From the NCBI GenBank assembly GCA_016186765.1, contig JACPLD010000002.1:35272-99271 (forward strand): 64,000 nucleotides of DNA. Direction: 5' to 3'. The notes under the pieces are model-generated. The model was not told the DNA's origin. It was given only the letters and a program-made list of their open reading frames with translations, and did not search any database. The DNA is from Candidatus Kaiserbacteria bacterium. GTDB lineage: Bacteria > Patescibacteriota > Minisyncoccia > Phycocordibacterales > UBA2100. Position numbers and translations under genes: made by a program. Of this stretch, positions 873 through 35,647 are shown piece by piece (the first letter of the stretch is position 1; the number at the start of each line of letters is the position of its first letter).

Positions 873-1490
873 GTGGATATTACGGCTATACTAGTCGCTA
901 TGGACCCGGGCTTCCTCATGGGGCTCATCGTTGATTACACCTACCTTATCATTGCTCCTGCGGCAATGATCATCGGTCCACCCGTGAGCCTTGTCGCAGG
1001 GGTGCTACTGCGTCTCGACGTTATATCCATAATCCCCACAGCGCTTGCGCTCGCGGCGGGAGAGCTTGGAGCTGACATCCTGTGGTATTGGATCGGCAGA
1101 CGCTACGGCGAGCAATTCGTCGAGCGCTACGGGCGCTACTTCGGCATCACCGAAAGTTCTATAGCCTATGCGAAAGACCTCTACAGCAGGCACCACGACA
1201 TCATTATCTTTACCTCAAAACTCACCGCCGGCTTTGGATTTGCCATGGTCATCCTTTTCACCGCGGGGCTTTCTCGCGTTCCCTTCCGTCGCTACATGAT
1301 GCTCAACATCGCCGGGCAATTCCTCTGGACCGCCGGACTTCTCTCGATCGGTTACTTCCTCGGCCACATTTACCTCAAGGTTGAAAACACCTTCGAAAAG
1401 ATGGCGCTCTTTGCCCTAGTTGCCCTCGTCCTCGCATCGCTCTTCGGCTTCAGCCGCTACCTTCGCTCCGGCATCCATAGGAAGCTGTGA
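873..1490 (+). CDS. DedA/VTT-family membrane protein
   Basis: Polytopic membrane protein of 205 aa with a DedA-like pattern (GPPVSLVAGVLL...LWYWIGRRYG). Confidence 0.65.
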   Translation: MDITAILVAMDPGFLMGLIVDYTYLIIAPAAMIIGPPVSLVAGVLLRLDVISIIPTALALAAGELGADILWYWIGRRYGEQFVERYGRYFGITESSIAYAKDLYSRHHDIIIFTSKLTAGFGFAMVILFTAGLSRVPFRRYMMLNIAGQFLWTAGLLSIGYFLGHIYLKVENTFEKMALFALVALVLASLFGFSRYLRSGIHRKL

Positions 1491-2212
1491 CGGGTATGCT
1501 TTCGATAATCATCCCGGCGCGAGAGGAGGAAAAAATAATCGAGCGCACTATTCGGCAGTTCGAGAGCCTGCGCATACCGCACGAGACAATCGTCTCCGAC
1601 GACGCGAGCTCGGATCGAACAGCCGAGATCGCACGGCGCTTCGCGGATGCCGTCGTTACCTACAATGGAAATAAGCACGTCGTCTCACGTGCGCGCAACG
1701 CGGGCGCGAAGGCGGCGCGCGGCGATATCTTCGTTTTCATCGATTCAGACTCATACTTTCCGGACCCCACCGATTTCTTCGAGCGAGCACGCGCCCAACT
1801 TGAGTCCGACTCCTCGCTCCTCGCGCTTGCAACCGCGCAGTGGGTGCGGAGCGATATGGAGCGCCCGGTCGACAGGCTTGTCTTTGGCCTCGACAATCTT
1901 ATCAATCGCTTTCTCAACAATGTGCTGCACCACGGCGCAGGTGCAGGCAAGTGCATGATCGTGCGAAAGAGCGCGTTCGAGCGTACCGGAGGATTCAATG
2001 AGAACCTCGTGTTCCGAGAGGATGGGGATTTTTTCAGGCGGATCTCGAAGATCGGAAAAGTCCGCTTTGATCCGAACCTTGCGGTCTATCACAGCGGGAG
2101 GCGGCTGCATCGCCTCGGCGTTGTGCGCTTCTACTCAAGCTGGATAATAAACGGTCTCTATACCGTATTTCTAGAGCGCGCTCGCGACAAAGAGTGGAAG
2201 CCGATTAGGTAG
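1487..2212 (+). CDS. Family 2 glycosyltransferase
   Basis: IIIPAREEE...SDDASSDRT...FIDSDS, a GT2 DxD-type fold. The true start may be ATG 1496, since GTG 1487 overlaps the DedA stop. Confidence 0.7.
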   Translation: MTGMLSIIIPAREEEKIIERTIRQFESLRIPHETIVSDDASSDRTAEIARRFADAVVTYNGNKHVVSRARNAGAKAARGDIFVFIDSDSYFPDPTDFFERARAQLESDSSLLALATAQWVRSDMERPVDRLVFGLDNLINRFLNNVLHHGAGAGKCMIVRKSAFERTGGFNENLVFREDGDFFRRISKIGKVRFDPNLAVYHSGRRLHRLGVVRFYSSWIINGLYTVFLERARDKEWKPIR

Positions 2213-3794: not shown

Positions 3795-3958
3795 CTTCCA
3801 TTTCTTGGGTGCCTATCCGGTTCTGCCCCGGAACTGCCAGCTCCACAAGCTGAAGTGCTGCTGTTACACCATAGGCACCATCGAACAACGGATTCTAGCA
3901 AAAAAAGCACATGCAGGCGACGCCGCCTTGTGAGAGGGCGGCGTCCAAAAAACCAAAC

Positions 3959-4345
3959 TCACACCGCCGGTTGTGTTGCGCCTGCCAGGGTTCCTTCTTT
4001 CATGCCAAAGCCAGCCCAAAGAGCTACCGCAGCGATGACAAGGTGCAGCAGGTGATCTGCCGTGTTGGTCGCGATGAGCCCCAAAACCGTGTCGCCCTGG
4101 AGAAAGCCCACTACCGCGACAACGGCGTACACCACGCCGAACACCTGAAAGTAGAGACGCGCATAGTTGCCGGCAAGTACGGCACCGAGCGCAAGCGCTC
4201 CGGAGAGAAGGTGGACGACGTTGTGGAGCGGATCCACCATGAATATCCCTAAGAGATGCCCGTCCGGAGTCAATGCCGGGACAAAGCCCAGAACACCGAT
4301 CGCAAGAAATACGATGCCGAAAACCCACGCTAGCGTTTGGATCAT
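3959..4345 (-). CDS. Small multi-TM membrane protein (DUF4383-like)
   Basis: 128 aa with four hydrophobic helices and no other motif. Confidence 0.4.
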   Translation of the reverse strand: MIQTLAWVFGIVFLAIGVLGFVPALTPDGHLLGIFMVDPLHNVVHLLSGALALGAVLAGNYARLYFQVFGVVYAVVAVVGFLQGDTVLGLIATNTADHLLHLVIAAVALWAGFGMKEGTLAGATQPAV

Positions 4346-8729: not shown

Positions 8730-9857
8730 CTATGCGCTTCGCAGCGCGAGTCCGATAGCCGTCGCAAACTGCAGCGACGCGCGACGCTCGATTGGAGGGA
8801 TATACTCATCGAACGAGCAGACGTTACGCCACACGCTCGGCCGCACGACCTCAACCTGAACGCGCGCCGCGAGATAGTCCCCAAGACCTTTGAGATTTCC
8901 GCTGCCGCCGAGGAGAAAAACTTGCTCGAGCGGCGTCAGCCGGTCGCCCCGTTCACTCCGACGTGTATCCCAGTAGTGAAAGTGGCGCACAACCTCGTCC
9001 GCAAGTGCGGAAGTAGTTCCAGTTATCGCCTCAAGCCCGGCCGAGCTCTTGCCATTGTGCGCAAGCAGTCCTTCCTCATTCTTGAATGTTGTGGCTGCCT
9101 CCGGCGTGAGTGCGAGTTTTTCGGAGAGAACATAATCGATGCTTCCGCCGCCAACGGCAACCGTCGAGGTGAAAATGGGGATGCCGCGCTTCAAGACCGC
9201 GAGCCCTGTGCGCAGCTCACCAAAATCGACTATGAGTGTGATAGGTTCGTTTCTTTCCGTGCTCGAAACAGCTCGTGCGATCGAGCGCGCCTCGACTTCG
9301 AGTGAGAGGAGTTCTATACCCGCTGCAGAAAATACAGAAGCATAGTGCTCGGCAAGCTCCTGGGGGAAAACGGTGACGCCGATCTCCATGTCCGCCTCGC
9401 CCCGCGCGATAACATCGAAATCGTACACGGCTTCGGCAGGCGCGATGGGAACCCGGTCCTGCAGCTCAAACTCGATCATAGAACACACGTGCCCGCGCGA
9501 GGAAACCTCAGGCACCTGCATGCTGAAGACGTAGGCCGATTCCTCGGGAAGCGCCGCGTGGGCACACTCGACACCCATCTTGTCTTTGAGGGTCCTCAAG
9601 ACCTCCGCAAGCGCAGGAGCATCTTCAACGACGCCGTTTACGACAATGCCGCTCTGAAGCGGTTCGCGGCCGAATGCTTGCACCTCCTTTCCTATGGCCC
9701 CGTCGTGAAGCACGATCCACTTTATGGAGGCGTCGGAAATGTCGATACCAGCCGCTCTCGGCAGCAGCAGGTGCGGCCGAGGGAACCATCTCGAAAGCGT
9801 GCGCGTCGCCGCGCTTGCGCCCTCAGATATAAACGCCGCTGGTGCCAGTATCCCCAT
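8730..9857 (-). CDS. pilM: Type IV pilus assembly ATPase-like protein PilM (actin/FtsA fold)
   Basis: GIDISDASIKWIVL... and ...LLGGSGNLKGLGDYL, a 375-aa actin-like fold. Confidence 0.7.
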   Translation of the reverse strand: MGILAPAAFISEGASAATRTLSRWFPRPHLLLPRAAGIDISDASIKWIVLHDGAIGKEVQAFGREPLQSGIVVNGVVEDAPALAEVLRTLKDKMGVECAHAALPEESAYVFSMQVPEVSSRGHVCSMIEFELQDRVPIAPAEAVYDFDVIARGEADMEIGVTVFPQELAEHYASVFSAAGIELLSLEVEARSIARAVSSTERNEPITLIVDFGELRTGLAVLKRGIPIFTSTVAVGGGSIDYVLSEKLALTPEAATTFKNEEGLLAHNGKSSAGLEAITGTTSALADEVVRHFHYWDTRRSERGDRLTPLEQVFLLGGSGNLKGLGDYLAARVQVEVVRPSVWRNVCSFDEYIPPIERRASLQFATAIGLALRSA

Positions 9858-10814: not shown

Positions 10815-11960
10815 TCATCGAATAGGCTCGTACCCGGCCGGCTTCGTGTGCTTCCCGAGGACGACCTGGCAGAGAGAGATGTGTTCTCCCGCGAAGAGTC
10901 CTTCGGACGCGGCGAGGTAGTACGTCCATGTGCGGTAGAACAACCGATCGTAGATGCCTCGTTTGTTGGGCTTGCCCTCGAAGCGAGGCCATGCTGCGAC
11001 GAAGTTCTCCCGCCAGAAGCGCAGAGTTCGAGCGTAGTCCTTCCCGAGCTCATGCCAGTCCCAGGGGAAGAAGAGCCCGCGAATGGCTCTTTCGATCTGG
11101 GAGCGCGCCGGCAGGATCCCGTACGGGAAGATGTACTTGTTGATCCAACGGTCCGCCGCACGTCCCACAATAGTGTGGAGAAGGAAGATGCCGTCGCCTT
11201 TCAAGCACCGGTACATGCACTGCATGAACGCTCGGTAGAATGCCGCGCCCACATGCTCAAACATGCCCACCGAGACGATCCTGTCGAAAGGCCGGTAGTG
11301 CTTGCACACGTCGCGGTAGTCCATGACGCGGATTTCAACCGGCAGTCTGGCACAGATTTCGCGTGCGTACGTAGCCTGCTCTTCGGAGAGCGTGACTGCT
11401 ACAACACTCACATTGAACTGCTCCGCGAGGAATCGCGCGAGTGTGCCGAAGCCACAGCCAACATCGAGCACGCGCATGCCCGGCTTGAGCTCAAGCTTTA
11501 AACCGATGAGACACATCTTGTCTTTTTGTGCCGATGTCAGCTCCCTCGCGCCCCAGCCGAAGTATGCGCAGGAATACTGCATTGTCTCCCCGAGCTTTGC
11601 TTTGTAGAACTCGTTGTCGAGGTCGTAATGCTCCGTAGCTGCGACACGCGCCCGGAGCCGCGTCTGCAGTTTCAACCTGCGGCTTAGGTGGAAGGGGTAG
11701 GCAATCAAACGCGCAAGGATGCCTGGCCCTACAGTTTTCACCCGCCGAATGCACTCCGGCAAGTCTTTCGTGTCCCAGGTACCTCTCTGATATTCTTCGC
11801 CAAAAGCGAGTGAACCCCAGAAAAGCACTCGGTAGAATAGCTGCGGGTCGCGAACCTCTATATCCCACGGCCGCGAACCGTTCAGAATGATATCGGCTCT
11901 TGCAAGCCGCCTCTGCGCCCACCTTTCAAGGAGACGCGTGAGGAACGGTATTTTCTTCAT
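10815..11960 (-). CDS. cfa: Cyclopropane-fatty-acyl-phospholipid synthase family SAM methyltransferase
   Basis: VLDVGCGFGTLARFLAE SAM motif, FEHVG, and CFA-synthase-like termini. Confidence 0.7.
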   Translation of the reverse strand: MKKIPFLTRLLERWAQRRLARADIILNGSRPWDIEVRDPQLFYRVLFWGSLAFGEEYQRGTWDTKDLPECIRRVKTVGPGILARLIAYPFHLSRRLKLQTRLRARVAATEHYDLDNEFYKAKLGETMQYSCAYFGWGARELTSAQKDKMCLIGLKLELKPGMRVLDVGCGFGTLARFLAEQFNVSVVAVTLSEEQATYAREICARLPVEIRVMDYRDVCKHYRPFDRIVSVGMFEHVGAAFYRAFMQCMYRCLKGDGIFLLHTIVGRAADRWINKYIFPYGILPARSQIERAIRGLFFPWDWHELGKDYARTLRFWRENFVAAWPRFEGKPNKRGIYDRLFYRTWTYYLAASEGLFAGEHISLCQVVLGKHTKPAGYEPIR

Positions 11961-12024
11961 GTGTGCTCTCCCTGAATGTAGAAGACTAGAAAAGACCTGC
12001 CCACGCTAGAGGCTAGGCGAATTT

Positions 12025-12393
12025 CTATGGCGAGTCAACCTTTCTGGCACGAAAATAGTTTCGGACAGCCTTGGTATCTTTTGCGATCGCGGCACGAAGG
12101 GTATCATCGTTTTCGAACGATTCGCTCTCACGGATTTTCTTGCACAGTTCTATTGAGATTTCTTTTCCATAGAGATTGGGCGCTGCATCGAGTAGGTGGG
12201 CTTCCAGTAGCTTCCTTTCCTGATCTGCAAACGCCGCGGCAAGATACTCTCTGCCATCGAGGAGAACCCGAGCAGCATATATTCCCGAGACACTCGAGTT
12301 GTCGAGCGAAATATTCACCGTGGGATATCCTAGGGCAGCCGCCCGTTTTTTTCCTTTTTGCACGATGCCTATGTGGGACCGAGAGTTATCCAC
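12025..12393 (-). CDS. Monofunctional riboflavin kinase (RibF C-terminal-domain type)
   Basis: GIVQKGKKRAAALGYPTVNI and flavokinase motifs; 122 aa with no FMNAT domain. Confidence 0.6.
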   Translation of the reverse strand: MDNSRSHIGIVQKGKKRAAALGYPTVNISLDNSSVSGIYAARVLLDGREYLAAAFADQERKLLEAHLLDAAPNLYGKEISIELCKKIRESESFENDDTLRAAIAKDTKAVRNYFRARKVDSP

Positions 12394-12461
12394 AGTCTAG
12401 AAATCATATCACGACTCCGGAAAGCAAAATGGGTTAAGATTGGTGTATTGGCAGAACTGGT

Positions 12462-13472
12462 ATGTCTAAATTGCATTCTCGCATATGTTTTCCTGCAGGG
12501 CGACAAAGAATATTCCTGCAAAAAGTCCTAAAAACAATGAAGATGACAGGCCAGGTGTGCGCGAAACAACTTGGCGTACACCCCCGGACATTTTCTGATT
12601 GGAGGCGCGAAGAATATTCTCTACCGCTCCCGATATTCAAAAAAATCATCAGGAAATCTGGACTCTCAGTCACGAATGTCGAAATACGGGAACCTCAGTG
12701 GCATCTTGAGGAAGCATCGGTAAAGGGAGGCTTCGCTCACTACAAAAAGTACGGATCAGTCTCTATTGACGAGGATCTTCGTAAGGAGCGTTGGCGCACT
12801 TGGTGGGAGAGCGAAGGCAGGTTCAAACAGTCAAATTGGTTTAGGACAAGACCCGTGCGGAAACCGATCCCCAATACGGCGTTGGCAGAATTTGTGGGTA
12901 TTGTTATAGGTGACGGCGGAATAACCAATCGACAAGTTACGATTACTTTGAACAGTGAAACGGATCATGAGTATTCTCAATTCGTAAGCGGCCTAGTGAC
13001 GAGATTGTTTAAAGTACCTGTCAGTAAAATAATGCGAAAAGGCGACATCGCCGTACGTTTAACCTGTTCTCGAACAGAAATGGTACGCATATGCATTGGT
13101 ATTGGCCTCAAGAAAGGAAACAAGCTGAAGCAAAATCTCGACATTCCTCTTTGGATAATGCGAAATCCACAATATGCAAGGGCATGCCTACGCGGACTCA
13201 TGGATACTGATGGTTGCATCTTCAATGAATGCCATAACATTCGCGGGAAGCGGTACTGCTATCCTCGATTGTCATTGGTAAGCGCCTCGGAGCAGCTTCG
13301 CCATTCAGTAAAAAGAATTTTGCACGAACATGGATTCTCGCCTACACTGCGGAATGCAAGAAGCGTCAACTTGGAACGTCGCGAGGATATCGTTCGATAC
13401 TTCCGAAAAATAGGAAGTAATAATCTGAAACACATTCGACGCTTCGAACAATTTACAGGAGGGGTCGGATAA
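12462..13472 (+). CDS. Free-standing LAGLIDADG homing endonuclease (double motif) with an N-terminal HTH
   Basis: LAEFVGIVIGDGGI and LRGLMDTDGCIF motifs. The stop codon lies inside the first 15 nt of tRNA-Ser. Confidence 0.7.
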   Translation: MSKLHSRICFPAGRQRIFLQKVLKTMKMTGQVCAKQLGVHPRTFSDWRREEYSLPLPIFKKIIRKSGLSVTNVEIREPQWHLEEASVKGGFAHYKKYGSVSIDEDLRKERWRTWWESEGRFKQSNWFRTRPVRKPIPNTALAEFVGIVIGDGGITNRQVTITLNSETDHEYSQFVSGLVTRLFKVPVSKIMRKGDIAVRLTCSRTEMVRICIGIGLKKGNKLKQNLDIPLWIMRNPQYARACLRGLMDTDGCIFNECHNIRGKRYCYPRLSLVSASEQLRHSVKRILHEHGFSPTLRNARSVNLERREDIVRYFRKIGSNNLKHIRRFEQFTGGVG

Positions 13473-13539
13473 TGGTATTCCACTAGTCTTGAAAACTAGC
13501 GCCCGCAAGGGCTTGTGAGTTCGAATCTCACCCCCTCCG
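13458..13539 (+). tRNA. tRNA-Ser (anticodon TGA), class II
   Basis: GGAGGGG acceptor, loop CTTGAAA, long V-arm CGCCCGCAAGGGC, GTGAGTTCGAATCTCAC T-arm, and G73. Confidence 0.7.
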
Positions 13540-13594
13540 CAGCTATTCACAGCCCCTCCCGAGAGAGCTTGCGCCCAGTGTACAATGCCTTTAT

Positions 13595-13999
13595 ATGAAA
13601 CACAGGGGTTTTACGCTTATTGAGTTACTCGTCGTTATCGCTATTATCGGCCTGCTTGCATCGATCGTCGTCGCTTCGCTTGCTTCCGTGCAGGGAAAAG
13701 GGCGCGACGCGCGCCGTGTTGCAGACATCGACGCTCTAAAGAAAGGGCTCACGATCTACTCGATCGACAAAGGCTCATTCCCGATCGCGACAGCAACGAC
13801 AACGCTCGCGGCAACCTCGACAGTTGGCGCGGCGCTCATCAGCTCGGATTCAATGACGACAATCCCGACTGATCCGAACGGCTCGCAATACTACTACGTG
13901 TCAAATTCGACGGGGACTACCTACAACATCAACTTCTGTCTTGAAACGAACTCCATCAAAGGATTCGCACAGGGCTGCAACAACTACGTGAGACCCTAA
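13595..13999 (+). CDS. Type IV pilin / pseudopilin (prepilin N-terminal methylation motif)
   Basis: M.HRGFTLIELLVVIAIIGLLA is the class III signal peptide. Confidence 0.75.
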   Translation: MKHRGFTLIELLVVIAIIGLLASIVVASLASVQGKGRDARRVADIDALKKGLTIYSIDKGSFPIATATTTLAATSTVGAALISSDSMTTIPTDPNGSQYYYVSNSTGTTYNINFCLETNSIKGFAQGCNNYVRP

Positions 14000-14116
14000 C
14001 AGTTAAGCTCCAAACACCAAGAAACAAATTCCAAACGATACCGGTTTGGAATTTAGGTTTTGAGTATTGAACATTGTTTGGTTATTGCGTCTTGTGATTT
14101 GGGATATTATTGGGAC

Positions 14117-14587
14117 ATGCCTCAATCATCCATTCCCATCCGCTGGAGAGCGTACGAGCATGAGCACATCGAACGCGGTGGCGACTGGTACTGGGCACTC
14201 GGAATCTTTGCCGGAGCCGTGGCACTCATTAGCGTGCTCCTTGGCAATATACTCTTTGGTATTGTCATCCTCGTTGCCGCCGGCACGCTTGCCATGCTTG
14301 CCTCCTCACCGCCGCCATTAGTCGAATTCGAGCTCTCTGATCGGGGCATCAAAATCGGCGATACGATGCACCGCTACGAGGACATCATCTCGTTTTGGGT
14401 CGAGGATCACGACGCCGATCCGCCCATTCTTCTCGTTGATACTACCAAGTGGCTTTCCCCCAATCTTGTGATCCCTCTCGAGGATGTCGACCCGAAGCAC
14501 GTGCGTGCATACCTCGTGGAGCGTGCGAGCGAAGTGCCGATGAAAGAGCCCGTGTGGCACAAAATCCTCGAGGCCTTCGGACTCTAA
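14117..14587 (+). CDS. Hypothetical membrane protein
   Basis: Two TM helices; the start at MPQSSIPIRW is chosen over the upstream extension. Confidence 0.4.
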   Translation: MPQSSIPIRWRAYEHEHIERGGDWYWALGIFAGAVALISVLLGNILFGIVILVAAGTLAMLASSPPPLVEFELSDRGIKIGDTMHRYEDIISFWVEDHDADPPILLVDTTKWLSPNLVIPLEDVDPKHVRAYLVERASEVPMKEPVWHKILEAFGL

Positions 14588-14675: not shown

Positions 14676-16550
14676 TTACTGAACGGTGACGATCGTGCTC
14701 GCCTGCCGCGTGCCGCCGCCGATCGTTACGCACTTGAGAACGAATGTTGCAGCAGAGGAGAGCGGTGGTGTGACGACTGCGCCATTCACGTTCGTCGCAT
14801 TTTTATTCTGCTCGGTAAAGCTCGGCAGGTCGGGACTCGAAATGACGCACGACTGCATCCCCGAGGTAACCCATCCAATTGCCGAAGTTGTGCCAGAGAA
14901 CACCGTCTTTGGATTCGTGATAAGTACGATCCCGGGTTTTGCGACCTGTATGCTGCAATCCTTCGATACGTTCCTGCCCTCATCGGTACACGTGAGACCA
15001 TAGGTCGCGACGTTCGTACCCAATGGAGGATTCGCGATGGTGACAGTGGTCGAGCCAGTCTGCGCGCCGTTCGTCTGGAAGCCAGAGCCAGAACTCGTGC
15101 CTGAGGAGCAGGAATAGGTGATCGCTATCGTCATTCCGACATCAGCGATCTGCGGCTGGCACGAGAGCTGTGCGGTGAGCGACGTGCCGCCACTGCCCGT
15201 CGGCACGCACTGCCAGCCGACGACACATGAGTTGTTTTGCCCGCCGTAGGTCGGCTTCCACGTTCCGTCTTGGCACGGTTGCTGCGGTTGCACGGGCGCC
15301 GGCGGACAATTTTGCCCTTGCTGAGGCGGGGGAGCACACTTATTGCTCCCTGAACCGGAGCCCCCGAACAATCCGAACAGTCCCGAGCTTCTGGAATCTC
15401 CCGACCCTTGAGCACAGCCGTACTGGCAGTATTGCACGGGGGTGTCAACGCACTGATTGTTACGAGAGTACAATGTGTTGCCTTGACAGATCGTCTGCCC
15501 ACCGTAGCACGTTCCTGGCGGACGCGGCATCTGGTTCCCCGGCGGAGGCTGCCCTCCAAGACCCTGCGGCATCCCTCCTCCACCTCCCGGCCCTCCTGGA
15601 GGAGGAAACGTTGACGGCGACGGCGGAGGAGGAGGGGGTGGTCCAGGCGGGGGTGGAGGTGGTGTATTACCATCACCACCCGGCGGATTCTCGAGAGCAC
15701 TCAATTTCTTCTGATTCTCTCTCAACTGAGCAAGACGGCTCTGAAGTTTTTCCAACCCTTCCTGTGCTTGGTCAAGATTTTCTTGCGTGTCGTCCCTGTC
15801 GTTATACTGTTTATCGCATGGAACGCCACCTGTATCACCGACACATTTGGCGAGCTTGTCAAGGGCTGCTTCGTAGGCTTCGCGAGATTCTTTGACGGCC
15901 GTTTCTTGATCTTTGATTTTCGACTCGACATCTTCAATCTCGCCGTCGAGGACTTTCTGCAGGGCATCCTGGGTCGCCTTATCAAGCGTGCCCTGCGAAC
16001 CGAGAGCGTCCGTGAGGTCTTTACTTAGCTCAGGCGATTTCTCTAATATCTTCTTGATCTCTTCCGCACTCAATGGCTTGCCGTTCTCGTCAAAAAATTC
16101 GTTCTGGCATTCACCCTTTTTTACATTGGGGTTCGGGATTGATTGTATCTCACCAGTTCCATCACGCTTGAGGACCACTTTGGAGTCCATGCCGGAACAC
16201 TCCTTCGCGCCATAAAAGTAACTCACGCACCTGTTTGCTTCAACCGTTTCGCCTTTCCCTAGTTTCGTTGTTGCACTACCAGCAATAACAATCTGATTAG
16301 GTTTTGTTGCTTTGCTCTTCAGCCCACTGCATATCTTTTCTATTTCCTTGCTGAGCTTTTCCTGTTCGGCTTTCGCAGACCCCTCCGTAGGAGACGCCGC
16401 AACTGCAACCTGCGTGTCACCTGCTACCGAAGAAAGCGGTGGGGTGGCGAGCTCGAAGGTAGCAACAGCTCCTGCGCCGAGCATGAGGGCAACCACGAGC
16501 GCACCAAGGACAGACACGCCACGCTCTCCCGCATGCGGGGATTTGCTCAT
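14676..16550 (-). CDS. Secreted Cys-rich, poly-proline protein (paralogue A), probably a surface protein
   Basis: Signal peptide, coiled coil, PPPPPPGPPPPPPPSPSTFPPPGGPGGGG, many Cys pairs, and a C-terminal domain shared with 22031-23419. Confidence 0.65.
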   Translation of the reverse strand: MSKSPHAGERGVSVLGALVVALMLGAGAVATFELATPPLSSVAGDTQVAVAASPTEGSAKAEQEKLSKEIEKICSGLKSKATKPNQIVIAGSATTKLGKGETVEANRCVSYFYGAKECSGMDSKVVLKRDGTGEIQSIPNPNVKKGECQNEFFDENGKPLSAEEIKKILEKSPELSKDLTDALGSQGTLDKATQDALQKVLDGEIEDVESKIKDQETAVKESREAYEAALDKLAKCVGDTGGVPCDKQYNDRDDTQENLDQAQEGLEKLQSRLAQLRENQKKLSALENPPGGDGNTPPPPPPGPPPPPPPSPSTFPPPGGPGGGGGMPQGLGGQPPPGNQMPRPPGTCYGGQTICQGNTLYSRNNQCVDTPVQYCQYGCAQGSGDSRSSGLFGLFGGSGSGSNKCAPPPQQGQNCPPAPVQPQQPCQDGTWKPTYGGQNNSCVVGWQCVPTGSGGTSLTAQLSCQPQIADVGMTIAITYSCSSGTSSGSGFQTNGAQTGSTTVTIANPPLGTNVATYGLTCTDEGRNVSKDCSIQVAKPGIVLITNPKTVFSGTTSAIGWVTSGMQSCVISSPDLPSFTEQNKNATNVNGAVVTPPLSSAATFVLKCVTIGGGTRQASTIVTVQ

Positions 16551-34942: not shown

Positions 34943-35647
34943 ATGGGCGAGCGAAAAGTTTTCTTCCAGCCCGGCGAGTGGTTCCACTGCTATAACCGCG
35001 GCGTGGACAAGAGGCGTGTATTTATGTCGCCAAGTGACTACCGTCGTTTTCTAGCGCTCATGTACGCATGCAACAACATTGAACCAATTCATGTCAGCGA
35101 CTACGAGCGCGGACTTAGAAGTAAGAAACTTGCCGATGTCCTCGCCATCGCACGGAAAGCACCGCTTGTAGACATCGGCGCGTACAATCTGATGCCAAAC
35201 CATTACCATCTTCTCTTGCGGGAGAGGATCGACGGCGGACTAACGTCCTTCATGCGGAAGCTCGGAACAGCGTATACGATGTATTTCAACATCAAATACG
35301 AGCGAGTCGGCGCACTCTATCAAGGTGCATTCAAGGCGAAGCATGTAAGAACCGACGGATACTTCAAGCGGCTGGTGAACTATATTCACGGCAACCATGC
35401 GGAGCTGACAGAACCAAAATGGAAGGAAGGGAAAGTCAAAAATGAGACTGCGTTATTGAAGGCTCTTGTCGCGTATCCACACTCGAGTCTCCGAGATTAC
35501 TACAGAGATCCTCGGCCAGAATCAGTGATAGTCAGCACAACTTCGCTTCTTGATGTTATCGATGCGATGCCGCGATTAAGGGATATCTTAAAGGATGCGC
35601 GAGTCTTCGCACACCTCCATGATGGGGAGCTCGAGCGGTCAAGGTAA
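34943..35647 (+). mobile_element. REP-associated tyrosine transposase (RAYT, IS200/IS605 Y1 HUH family)
   Basis: FHCYNRG N-terminus, HUH motif MPNHYHLLL, and catalytic-Tyr helix RLVNYIHGNH. It is flanked by REP copies 2 and 3. Confidence 0.75.

Follow-up and report, generated by a model that had tools for sequence, protein, structure and literature searches.

A candidate homing endonuclease gene family at the 5' flank of tRNA-Ser genes in Patescibacteria

We analyzed a stretch of 64,000 nt (hereafter the window) from a Candidatus Kaiserbacteria metagenome-assembled genome (MAG; GenBank assembly GCA_016186765.1, contig JACPLD010000002.1, forward-strand positions 35,272 to 99,271), in which a gene for a 336-aa LAGLIDADG protein runs into a tRNA-Ser(TGA) gene on the same strand and ends within it. 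Relatives of this gene lie next to tRNA-Ser genes in other genomes, and the same tRNA genes also occur without them. Judging from these comparisons, we consider it fairly likely that the gene belongs to a selfish, free-standing, tRNA-Ser-linked family of homing endonucleases that combine a helix-turn-helix (HTH) with LAGLIDADG domains, that is specific to Patescibacteria (candidate phyla radiation, CPR), and that is co-transcribed with the tRNA in the clade of the window. Both the enzyme family and the selfish logic are known; what is new is the relationship to the host gene, a protein-coding 5' leader of a tRNA, and its large scale. In literature on LAGLIDADG proteins, tRNA-Ser, Patescibacteria, CPR or Parcubacteria, and free-standing endonucleases, we found no description of the association of this family with tRNA-Ser, and the family is apparently undescribed.

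Anatomy of the endonuclease gene and its junction with tRNA-Ser(TGA)

The open reading frame (ORF) encodes an N-terminal HTH, a Trp-rich helical linker, and a double-motif LAGLIDADG core (Table 1). Both motifs, FVGIVIGDGG (with D151) and LRGLMDTDG (with D250), were found in the window protein, and Pfam LAGLIDADG_3 (PF14528) matches aa 238-318 (E 1.4e-8, 35.3 bits, cutoff 22.5), a match confined to the second LAGLIDADG domain. No family member deviates at either catalytic aspartate, in a set of 25 sequences or in one of 80, and R244, G245, L246, D248, T249, D250, and G251 are each invariant in all 80. An AlphaFold2 (AF2) model built on the family alignment has a mean predicted local distance difference test score (pLDDT) of 87.9 and places HTH-like helices at residues 14-26, 30-37, 41-48, and 56-66, followed by a helical linker and two alpha/beta LAGLIDADG domains; within aa 139-332, helices and strands follow the order expected for two tandem alpha-beta-beta-alpha-beta-beta-alpha domains. 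The best structural match in a Foldseek search was I-Tsp061I, an archaeal rRNA-intron enzyme (E 4.7e-11, template modeling (TM) score 0.75 normalized to the target), with intein endonuclease domains, I-AniI, I-DmoI, and I-OnuI also among the top matches at probability 1.00, and WhiA (PDB 3hyi) appearing at rank 44. Judged by motifs, Pfam profile, and predicted fold, the protein is of the monomeric double-motif LAGLIDADG type.

A preliminary description of this locus, made from the sequence alone, had proposed an N-terminal HTH, and this proposal stands well for the family and less firmly for the window protein itself. Many homologs have precomputed Pfam HTH_3 (PF01381) matches and the AF2 helices span aa 14-66, whereas the window protein gives weak matches to a PHROG repressor (E 0.0025), to NCBIfam VC1465 (E 0.0011) and, in a PDB sequence search, to CylR2/HipB (E 0.03-0.3). 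Searches of the window protein against NCBIfam, PHROGs, and PDB sequences returned distant matches and no close named family. The public NCBI record of the protein starts at M26 and has 311 aa. Because residues R7, F10, Q15, and F18, encoded upstream of M26 (window 12462-12536), are invariant among homologs, the 336-aa start, 25 codons upstream, is by this conservation the better call; the start codon would then be miscalled in the record for this genome, and genes of the family are mostly annotated as hypothetical proteins.

The tRNA gene itself is intact. The Rfam tRNA model (RF00005) matches its full length, untruncated, over 82 nt (13458-13539) with 57.1 bits against a gathering score of 29. 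The variable stem is present in the cloverleaf minimum-free-energy (MFE) fold, and the cloverleaf is kept as the MFE fold when 60 nt of the ORF 3' end are attached (z = -3.4). The endonuclease stop codon corresponds to U13-A14-A15 of the tRNA, that is, the last base of the 5' D-stem strand followed by the near-universal A14 and R15, and the C-terminal tail encoded by the tRNA is poorly ordered in the AF2 model (residues 334-336, pLDDT below 50). The endonuclease gene is free-standing: the tRNA is uninterrupted, the ORF lies wholly 5' of tRNA nucleotide 16, and there are no extein flanks. Rfam scans found no rRNA, intron, or other RNA family near the locus (11500-14500, E<=1), and none at gathering score in the whole window. 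The double-motif ORF, the stop codon 15 nt into an intact 82-nt tRNA-Ser, and the absence of rRNA or intron context, as first described, were thus borne out by the ORF list, Pfam, ARAGORN, and Rfam; the tRNA fold also held under covariance scoring, and the catalytic acidic residues were retained on alignment.

The same in-frame junction, in which the first 15 nt of the tRNA encode GGVG and a stop, recurs in L001, L003, L005, L011, L017, L018, and L047 (comparison loci carry L numbers) and in approximately 20 metagenome contigs. It is shared by the closest relatives of the window copy, L093-L095, and L096 and L097 differ by 1 nt (overlap 16 nt). The overlap, which the preliminary description had treated as the key feature, is across the family a clade-specific variant of a more general tight adjacency.

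Linkage to tRNA-Ser, empty sites, and decay across the family

A word-indexed search returned 942 homologs, nearly all of about 340 aa, and an exhaustive profile search (E<=1e-30) returned 646 clusters at 50% identity. Among contigs representing one genome per species, at least 552 species genomes encode a relative, and those listed are all Patescibacteria-type MAGs. Our junction survey covered the best-scoring 80 of these at least 552 loci together with the window, a selection that biases the pseudogene frequency downwards; most of the compared genomes are MAGs. The next gene on the same strand is a tRNA-Ser (TGA, GCT, or CGA) in 76 of 77 assessable loci, and the stop codon ends between -38 and +54 of tRNA position 1 in 73 loci, the exceptions being L050 (-177), L052 (-63), L056 (+136), and L063 (no tRNA). 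Since the juxtaposition recurs in 76 of 77 homologous loci, adjacency by chance is excluded. In a rough neighbor-joining tree, the endonuclease clades track the isoacceptor (gct, cga, tga) with few switches, and one genome has two copies at different isoacceptors (L031 and L056).

Comparison of the tRNA-Ser(TGA) locus among related genomes, which the preliminary description had suggested, revealed empty sites. Using the riboflavin kinase gene (ribF) of the window, we located empty Kaiserbacteria sites in L087-L089 and L091. In L087-L089, L117, and L137, all from related Kaiserbacteria, ribF is followed after 58 nt by the same tRNA-Ser(tga) with no endonuclease gene, and the first 60 nt of the tRNA at the endonuclease-free Kaiserbacteria site are identical to those of the window, including the D-loop TAA. 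L091 is also empty, with the tRNA inverted and of a different allele; exact-sequence look-ups with the window ribF gave occupied strain variants only. A metagenome scan anchored solely on the first 25 nt of the tRNA, and thus sampling one tRNA D-arm type only, yielded 66 contigs, 63 of them assessable, of which 28 were occupied and 35 empty. Identical whole tRNAs were found in both states, in L099 versus L105 and L149, and in L138 and L162 (occupied) versus L110 and L147 (empty); L147 and L162 are syntenic upstream at 73-86% nucleotide identity. The empty L147 has the layout promoter, Ser(gct), 4 nt, Ser(tga), and none of its four tRNA-Ser genes is occupied. Because 35 of 63 loci with the same tRNA 5' sequence are empty, and identical tRNAs occur in both states, the endonuclease gene is dispensable. 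The occupied and empty alleles, together with the position 5' of tRNA-Ser in 76 of 77 loci, strongly support the earlier suggestion that the tRNA gene is a landing site.

Decayed copies were also found, in line with the degeneration and loss that follow fixation in the homing cycle. L108 retains only the last 39 codons, L123 and L136 have lost approximately 900 nt internally, which leaves the promoter region plus some 40 nt at the 3' end, and L154 is frameshifted. In six pairs of intact copies, the ratio of nonsynonymous to synonymous substitution rates (dN/dS) is 0.11-0.18, indicating purifying selection. Carriage by phages was considered and rejected, as viral contigs hold only distant LAGLIDADG genes (<=30% identity).

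The loci fall into two junction types that differ in how the tRNA could be transcribed. In the large GCT-linked group, the ORF ends with ...NPKHLKRYKK and a stop codon 13-38 nt before the tRNA; the His-Leu-Lys codons read CAC TTGAAA, and a TAnnnT box follows exactly 17 nt on, past the stop codon. Of 37 non-overlapping loci, 25 carry this promoter-like TTGnnn-17-TAnnnT motif at 4-16 nt upstream of the tRNA, where shuffles predict 0.9; its geometry matches that of the promoters of endonuclease-free tRNA-Ser genes in the flanks. The motif is absent from all 25 overlapping loci, including that of the window, because there is no room for it between ORF and tRNA. The tRNA of the overlapping clade is therefore probably transcribed through the endonuclease gene. 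The preliminary description had offered co-transcription and joint processing as one of two possibilities; for the overlapping clade, this promoter contrast and the persistence of the cloverleaf with ORF sequence attached argue for it.

The start of the gene is conserved as DNA. Homologs with only 40-50% protein identity share the consensus TTG-(17)-TGnTAnAAT-GGAGAT-ATG GCT GAR NNG TTT AA, in which 6 nt separate the extended -10 box from the ATG, a spacing that fits a leaderless mRNA. This TTG-17-TGnTAnAAT-GGAGAT-ATG consensus is degenerate in the window copy, whose sequence at 12439-12461 (ATTGGTGTATTGGCAGAACTGGT) is nearly identical to the matching region of its closest relative.

Selfish element, resident host gene, or replacement cassette

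In the reading we favor, that of a selfish homing endonuclease gene, the family has a fixed address, just 5' of a tRNA-Ser gene and in the same orientation. In the clade of the window, the gene has neither a stop codon nor a spacer of its own, so that translation runs into the tRNA and ends at U13-A14-A15 of the D-arm. One transcript would start upstream of the ORF, making the endonuclease mRNA in effect the 5' leader of the tRNA-Ser precursor, from which RNase P would release the tRNA. The RNase P cut at tRNA +1 would also strip the stop codon from the mRNA, such that full-length protein would come only from unprocessed transcripts, and this loss is predicted to limit synthesis of the full-length nuclease. 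To spread, the enzyme would probably cut tRNA-Ser loci that lack the gene, at the 5' boundary of the tRNA or close to it, and an occupied allele would then serve as the template for recombinational repair, possibly aided by CPR DNA uptake. Since the gene lies between a promoter and an essential tRNA, losing it imprecisely would be costly. Selfish behavior is suggested by patchy occurrence at an identical tRNA locus, by decay through deletion, and by selection on intact copies that have kept both aspartates.

Several observations weigh against this reading. We found no systematic differences between occupied and empty tRNAs, some of which are identical in sequence. A target confined to the tRNA would thus expose carriers to their own enzyme, and the tRNA body by itself does not account for how occupied alleles avoid being cut. 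By eye, no conserved motif that might serve as a left half-site was seen upstream of empty sites. Given identical tRNAs in both states and no upstream conservation, the reading leaves the target and the immunity of carriers unexplained. The target may span the junction with little constraint on its upstream side, or carriers may be only partly immune, as with SegB of phage T4 (see below), or the enzyme may attack a different tRNA-Ser allele. As for transcription, neither the region upstream of the ORF nor its 3' end yielded a promoter in a scan for the sigma-70 consensus over 12200-13750, and the tRNA may yet have a promoter within the ORF. Endonuclease GC content tracks host GC content (r = 0.87) and no near-identical copies were seen in distant hosts, so that residence looks long and mostly vertical. 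At 45.6% GC, the ORF is the lowest 1011-nt stretch of the window (55.6% +/- 2.7); we had considered this as a sign of recent horizontal acquisition and dropped it, since the deficit is family-wide and follows the host.

Such a history would suit a domesticated LAGLIDADG-HTH protein, a long-resident host gene that is no longer mobile and acts on or regulates the adjacent tRNA-Ser, as a transcription factor or in DNA maintenance or processing. Purifying selection, the correlation with host GC content, clades that stay with one isoacceptor, the XRE-like HTH, nucleotide-level conservation of the start region as a possible operator, and the lack of close relatives on viral contigs all point this way, as does the structural match to WhiA, a domesticated protein with a double LAGLIDADG fold and an HTH. 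We nevertheless regard domestication as unlikely, because the gene is missing from more than half of the loci with the same tRNA 5' sequence, those with identical tRNAs included, L147 leaves four tRNA-Ser genes unoccupied, deletion and frameshift derivatives exist, and one genome carries copies at two different tRNA-Ser genes; in addition, both catalytic aspartates are invariant, which would be needless for a pure DNA-binding regulator. WhiA differs from this family. Its HTH is C-terminal, it has lost the catalytic acidic residues, and it is conserved throughout its lineages, whereas the family has an N-terminal HTH and two invariant aspartates and is missing from 35 of the 63 loci compared.

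The occurrence of one and the same tRNA with and without the endonuclease gene would be explained if that gene moved together with its own resistant tRNA-Ser allele: a sensitive allele would be cut and replaced, its old 5' stub would stay behind on the 5' side of the ORF, and once the cassette is fixed, loss of the endonuclease gene could leave only the resistant tRNA in place. The sequence around the ORF start (GGAGAT-ATGGCTGAG..GTTTAA) does resemble nt 1-24 or 1-26 of a tRNA-Ser of the canonical D-arm type. With a position weight matrix (PWM) of tRNA-Ser nt 1-26, the site 6 nt before the ATG ranks within the first 5 of approximately 13,500 in 52 of 80 loci, and with the matrix restricted to nt 10-26 its median rank is 76. 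However, a promoter GG discriminator after the -10 box, together with the start codon, can account for positions 1-9, and because the loci are homologous and not independent, what remains as independent evidence is roughly p = 0.005 for one ancestral sequence. The -10 box abuts the putative stub (0 nt), as opposed to lying 9-13 nt upstream in real tRNA-Ser promoters, and the canonical type is itself common among the tRNA-Ser(gct) genes that neighbor an endonuclease gene. In the window copy the resemblance has been lost and no significant stub is seen: the best match to the first 15 nt of the tRNA upstream of its ORF has 7 mismatches, and the matrix ranks for this copy lie beyond 1000 at the family register and at 112 of 126,736 at another offset, which is not significant given approximately 70 tested offsets. 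The resemblance is thus suggestive and may reflect either a remnant of the 5' end of a displaced tRNA or an operator that looks like the target, and we consider replacement by a mobile tRNA allele quite improbable for this family.

This replacement scenario has a parallel in a second nuclease family. In L106, and also in L118 and L119, a perfect 34-nt tRNA-Ser 5' half (GGAGGGGTCGGATAATGGTATTCCACCGGTCTTG) is followed by an 89-aa GIY-YIG ORF (Pfam E 3.6e-7), 12 nt, and an intact tRNA-Ser(tga) with a different D-arm, which looks like a nuclease gene having overwritten a tRNA-Ser gene. Further 5' halves of tRNA-Ser, of 31-35 nt, precede an intact, endonuclease-free tRNA-Ser(tga) of another type in L009 (within 60 nt before 5244) and L043 (within 60 nt before 4898), separated from it by CCCCGTAC(C/G)AAAA; these fragments count in favor of replacement and may be scars of earlier events. 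A broader and rather unlikely version would make CPR tRNA-Ser genes a battleground of LAGLIDADG and small GIY-YIG gene-drive cassettes, each carrying or protecting its own allele, overwriting the resident one, and leaving 5' stubs, with tRNA maturation and nuclease synthesis mutually exclusive in the overlapping clade and the toxic enzyme thereby throttled. If true, it would explain the unusual D-arm diversity among CPR tRNA-Ser.

Separately, small ORFs that look GIY-YIG-like by eye lie directly after the tRNA-Ser behind the LAGLIDADG gene in L162 (approximately 9380-9552, reversed relative to the stored locus, at the contig end; YYVYILQS...YIGYT) and in L009 (approximately 3795-4091; MYYVYFLLL...YTGTA).

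An intron, a split tRNA, or a chance artefact of a compact genome is hardly credible as an explanation, even though CPR genomes are compact and rich in rRNA introns encoding LAGLIDADG enzymes (PMC11270868). The tRNA is uninterrupted and well scored, no group I or II intron or other RNA family was found in the Rfam scans, the ORF stays 5' of tRNA nucleotide 16, and the juxtaposition extends over three isoacceptors; we therefore rejected the intron and split-tRNA readings.

Among known systems, the closest functional precedent is SegB of phage T4, a free-standing GIY-YIG homing endonuclease in a tRNA gene cluster, which recognizes a site within tRNA genes and promotes the inheritance of both its gene and the neighboring tRNA region (PMC2330249). 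The SegB donor genome retains weaker cleavage sites, a precedent for incomplete immunity (PMC2330249). The resemblance lies in a free-standing endonuclease gene among tRNA genes and is functional only. SegB is a phage-borne GIY-YIG enzyme, in contrast to a LAGLIDADG family on a cellular chromosome; it recognizes the generic T-psi-C motif of many tRNAs without fixed placement before one tRNA species, and it shows neither an ORF-tRNA overlap nor dependence of the tRNA on the endonuclease promoter. LAGLIDADG genes of CPR bacteria have been described inside rRNA insertion sequences and introns, in a study that nowhere mentions tRNA (PMC11270868). These, like I-Tsp061I and I-DmoI, belong to the same superfamily and target conserved structural-RNA genes, and the CPR enzymes share the host phylum. 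They interrupt the RNA gene and are removed from the RNA, however, whereas the window gene is free-standing 5' of an uninterrupted tRNA, and the window protein has an additional N-terminal HTH and only approximately 17-20% identity to them.

An organelle comparison is also instructive. In mitochondria, free-standing or fused endonuclease genes insert at host-gene ends and bring along a copy that replaces the displaced terminus, for example at fungal atp6 and rps3. The likeness consists of an ORF fused to or overlapping the end of an essential gene, a possible leftover stub, and a host gene that functions without splicing. The mitochondrial cases affect the 3' ends of organelle protein genes, in contrast to the 5' end of a bacterial tRNA here, where the putative stub is at most statistically suggestive.

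Genomic surroundings and meaning for the family

Coordinates of the endonuclease gene, its tRNA, and the flanking genes are collected in Table 1.

Table 1. Features of the tRNA-Ser(TGA) locus in the window, with one comparison locus.
Feature	Position	Strand	Basis or remark
Riboflavin kinase gene (ribF), left boundary, divergent	12025..12393	-	Pfam Flavokinase, E 6.6e-23
ribF-ORF intergenic region, 68 nt, presumed promoter and leader	12394..12461	+	Comparison with L093/L094
Endonuclease ORF, 336 aa, ATG start	12462..13472	+	ORF list, Pfam LAGLIDADG_3, AF2, Foldseek, homologs
HTH region, XRE/HTH_3-like, aa 14-66	12501..12659	+	AF2 helices, weak profile matches, PF01381 in homologs
LAGLIDADG motif 1, AEFVGIVIGDG	12888..12920	+	Catalytic Asp151 codon 12912-12914
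LAGLIDADG motif 2, LRGLMDTDG	13188..13214	+	Catalytic Asp250 codon 13209-13211
tRNA-Ser(TGA), class II, D-stem 3-4 bp, D-arm type GTCGGATAATGGTATTCC, CCA not encoded	13458..13540	+	ARAGORN
Shared segment, tRNA nt 1-15: GGA GGG GTC GGA (GGVG) and TAA	13458..13472	+	Sequence
Endonuclease stop codon, TAA	13470-13472	+	
Type IV pilin-like gene, right boundary	13595..13999	+	Pfam N_methyl and T2SSG
L106 (original coordinates), 25-nt pattern match	1582-1606	-	
L106 (original coordinates), tRNA	1159-1245	-	

The pilin gene context is syntenic in L083, L088, and L091. The gene lacks a Shine-Dalgarno sequence, and a TACAAT box lies 8 nt upstream of its ATG (window 13581-13597; L091 approximately 3834-3860, minus strand), and with the -10 box of the endonuclease family 6 nt before its own ATG, leaderless transcripts may be common in these genomes. 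Two genes downstream, past the pilin gene and a 175-aa ORF, lies a 624-aa ORF (14676-16550, minus strand) that contains a long run of Pro and Gly (PPPPPPGPPPPPPPSP...) and is Cys-rich in its C-terminal half; it has no recorded Pfam match in the related locus L083.

The 3' side of the tRNA is also an insertion spot, because in the endonuclease-free Kaiserbacteria locus L088 (2320-3593), and also in L087, the tRNA-Ser(tga) is separated from the pilin gene by an insertion sequence (IS)-like pair, a transposon HTH protein and an rve integrase. By a hand count of locus lengths, the contig breaks off within 300 nt past the tRNA-Ser in about 22 of 80 loci, compared with 5 of 80 in which it does so within 300 nt upstream of the endonuclease gene, which suggests a repeat or strain-variable region just past these tRNAs. 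Among the CPR tRNA-Ser genes of L001-L163 we saw several very different D-arm types, including GTGGCTGAGTGGTTGAAAGC, GTCGGATAATGGTATTCC, GTCGCATAGTGGTCTAGTGC, and GTGCGGCGAATGGTAAGCC, and one anticodon may carry different D-arm types even in related genomes (the window versus L091). ARAGORN also reported a tRNA-Ser with the anticodon ACT, unusual for bacteria, in L001 (7373-7457) and L034 (3820-3909, minus strand).

Hosts normally tolerate a homing endonuclease because it is removed from the product of the host gene by way of an intron or intein. The very large family described here appears to have found another way, residing in the 5' leader of an essential tRNA gene. If active, its members would be a new set of natural meganucleases with tRNA-linked targets, and would offer a tractable case of the long persistence of selfish nucleases in tiny genomes.

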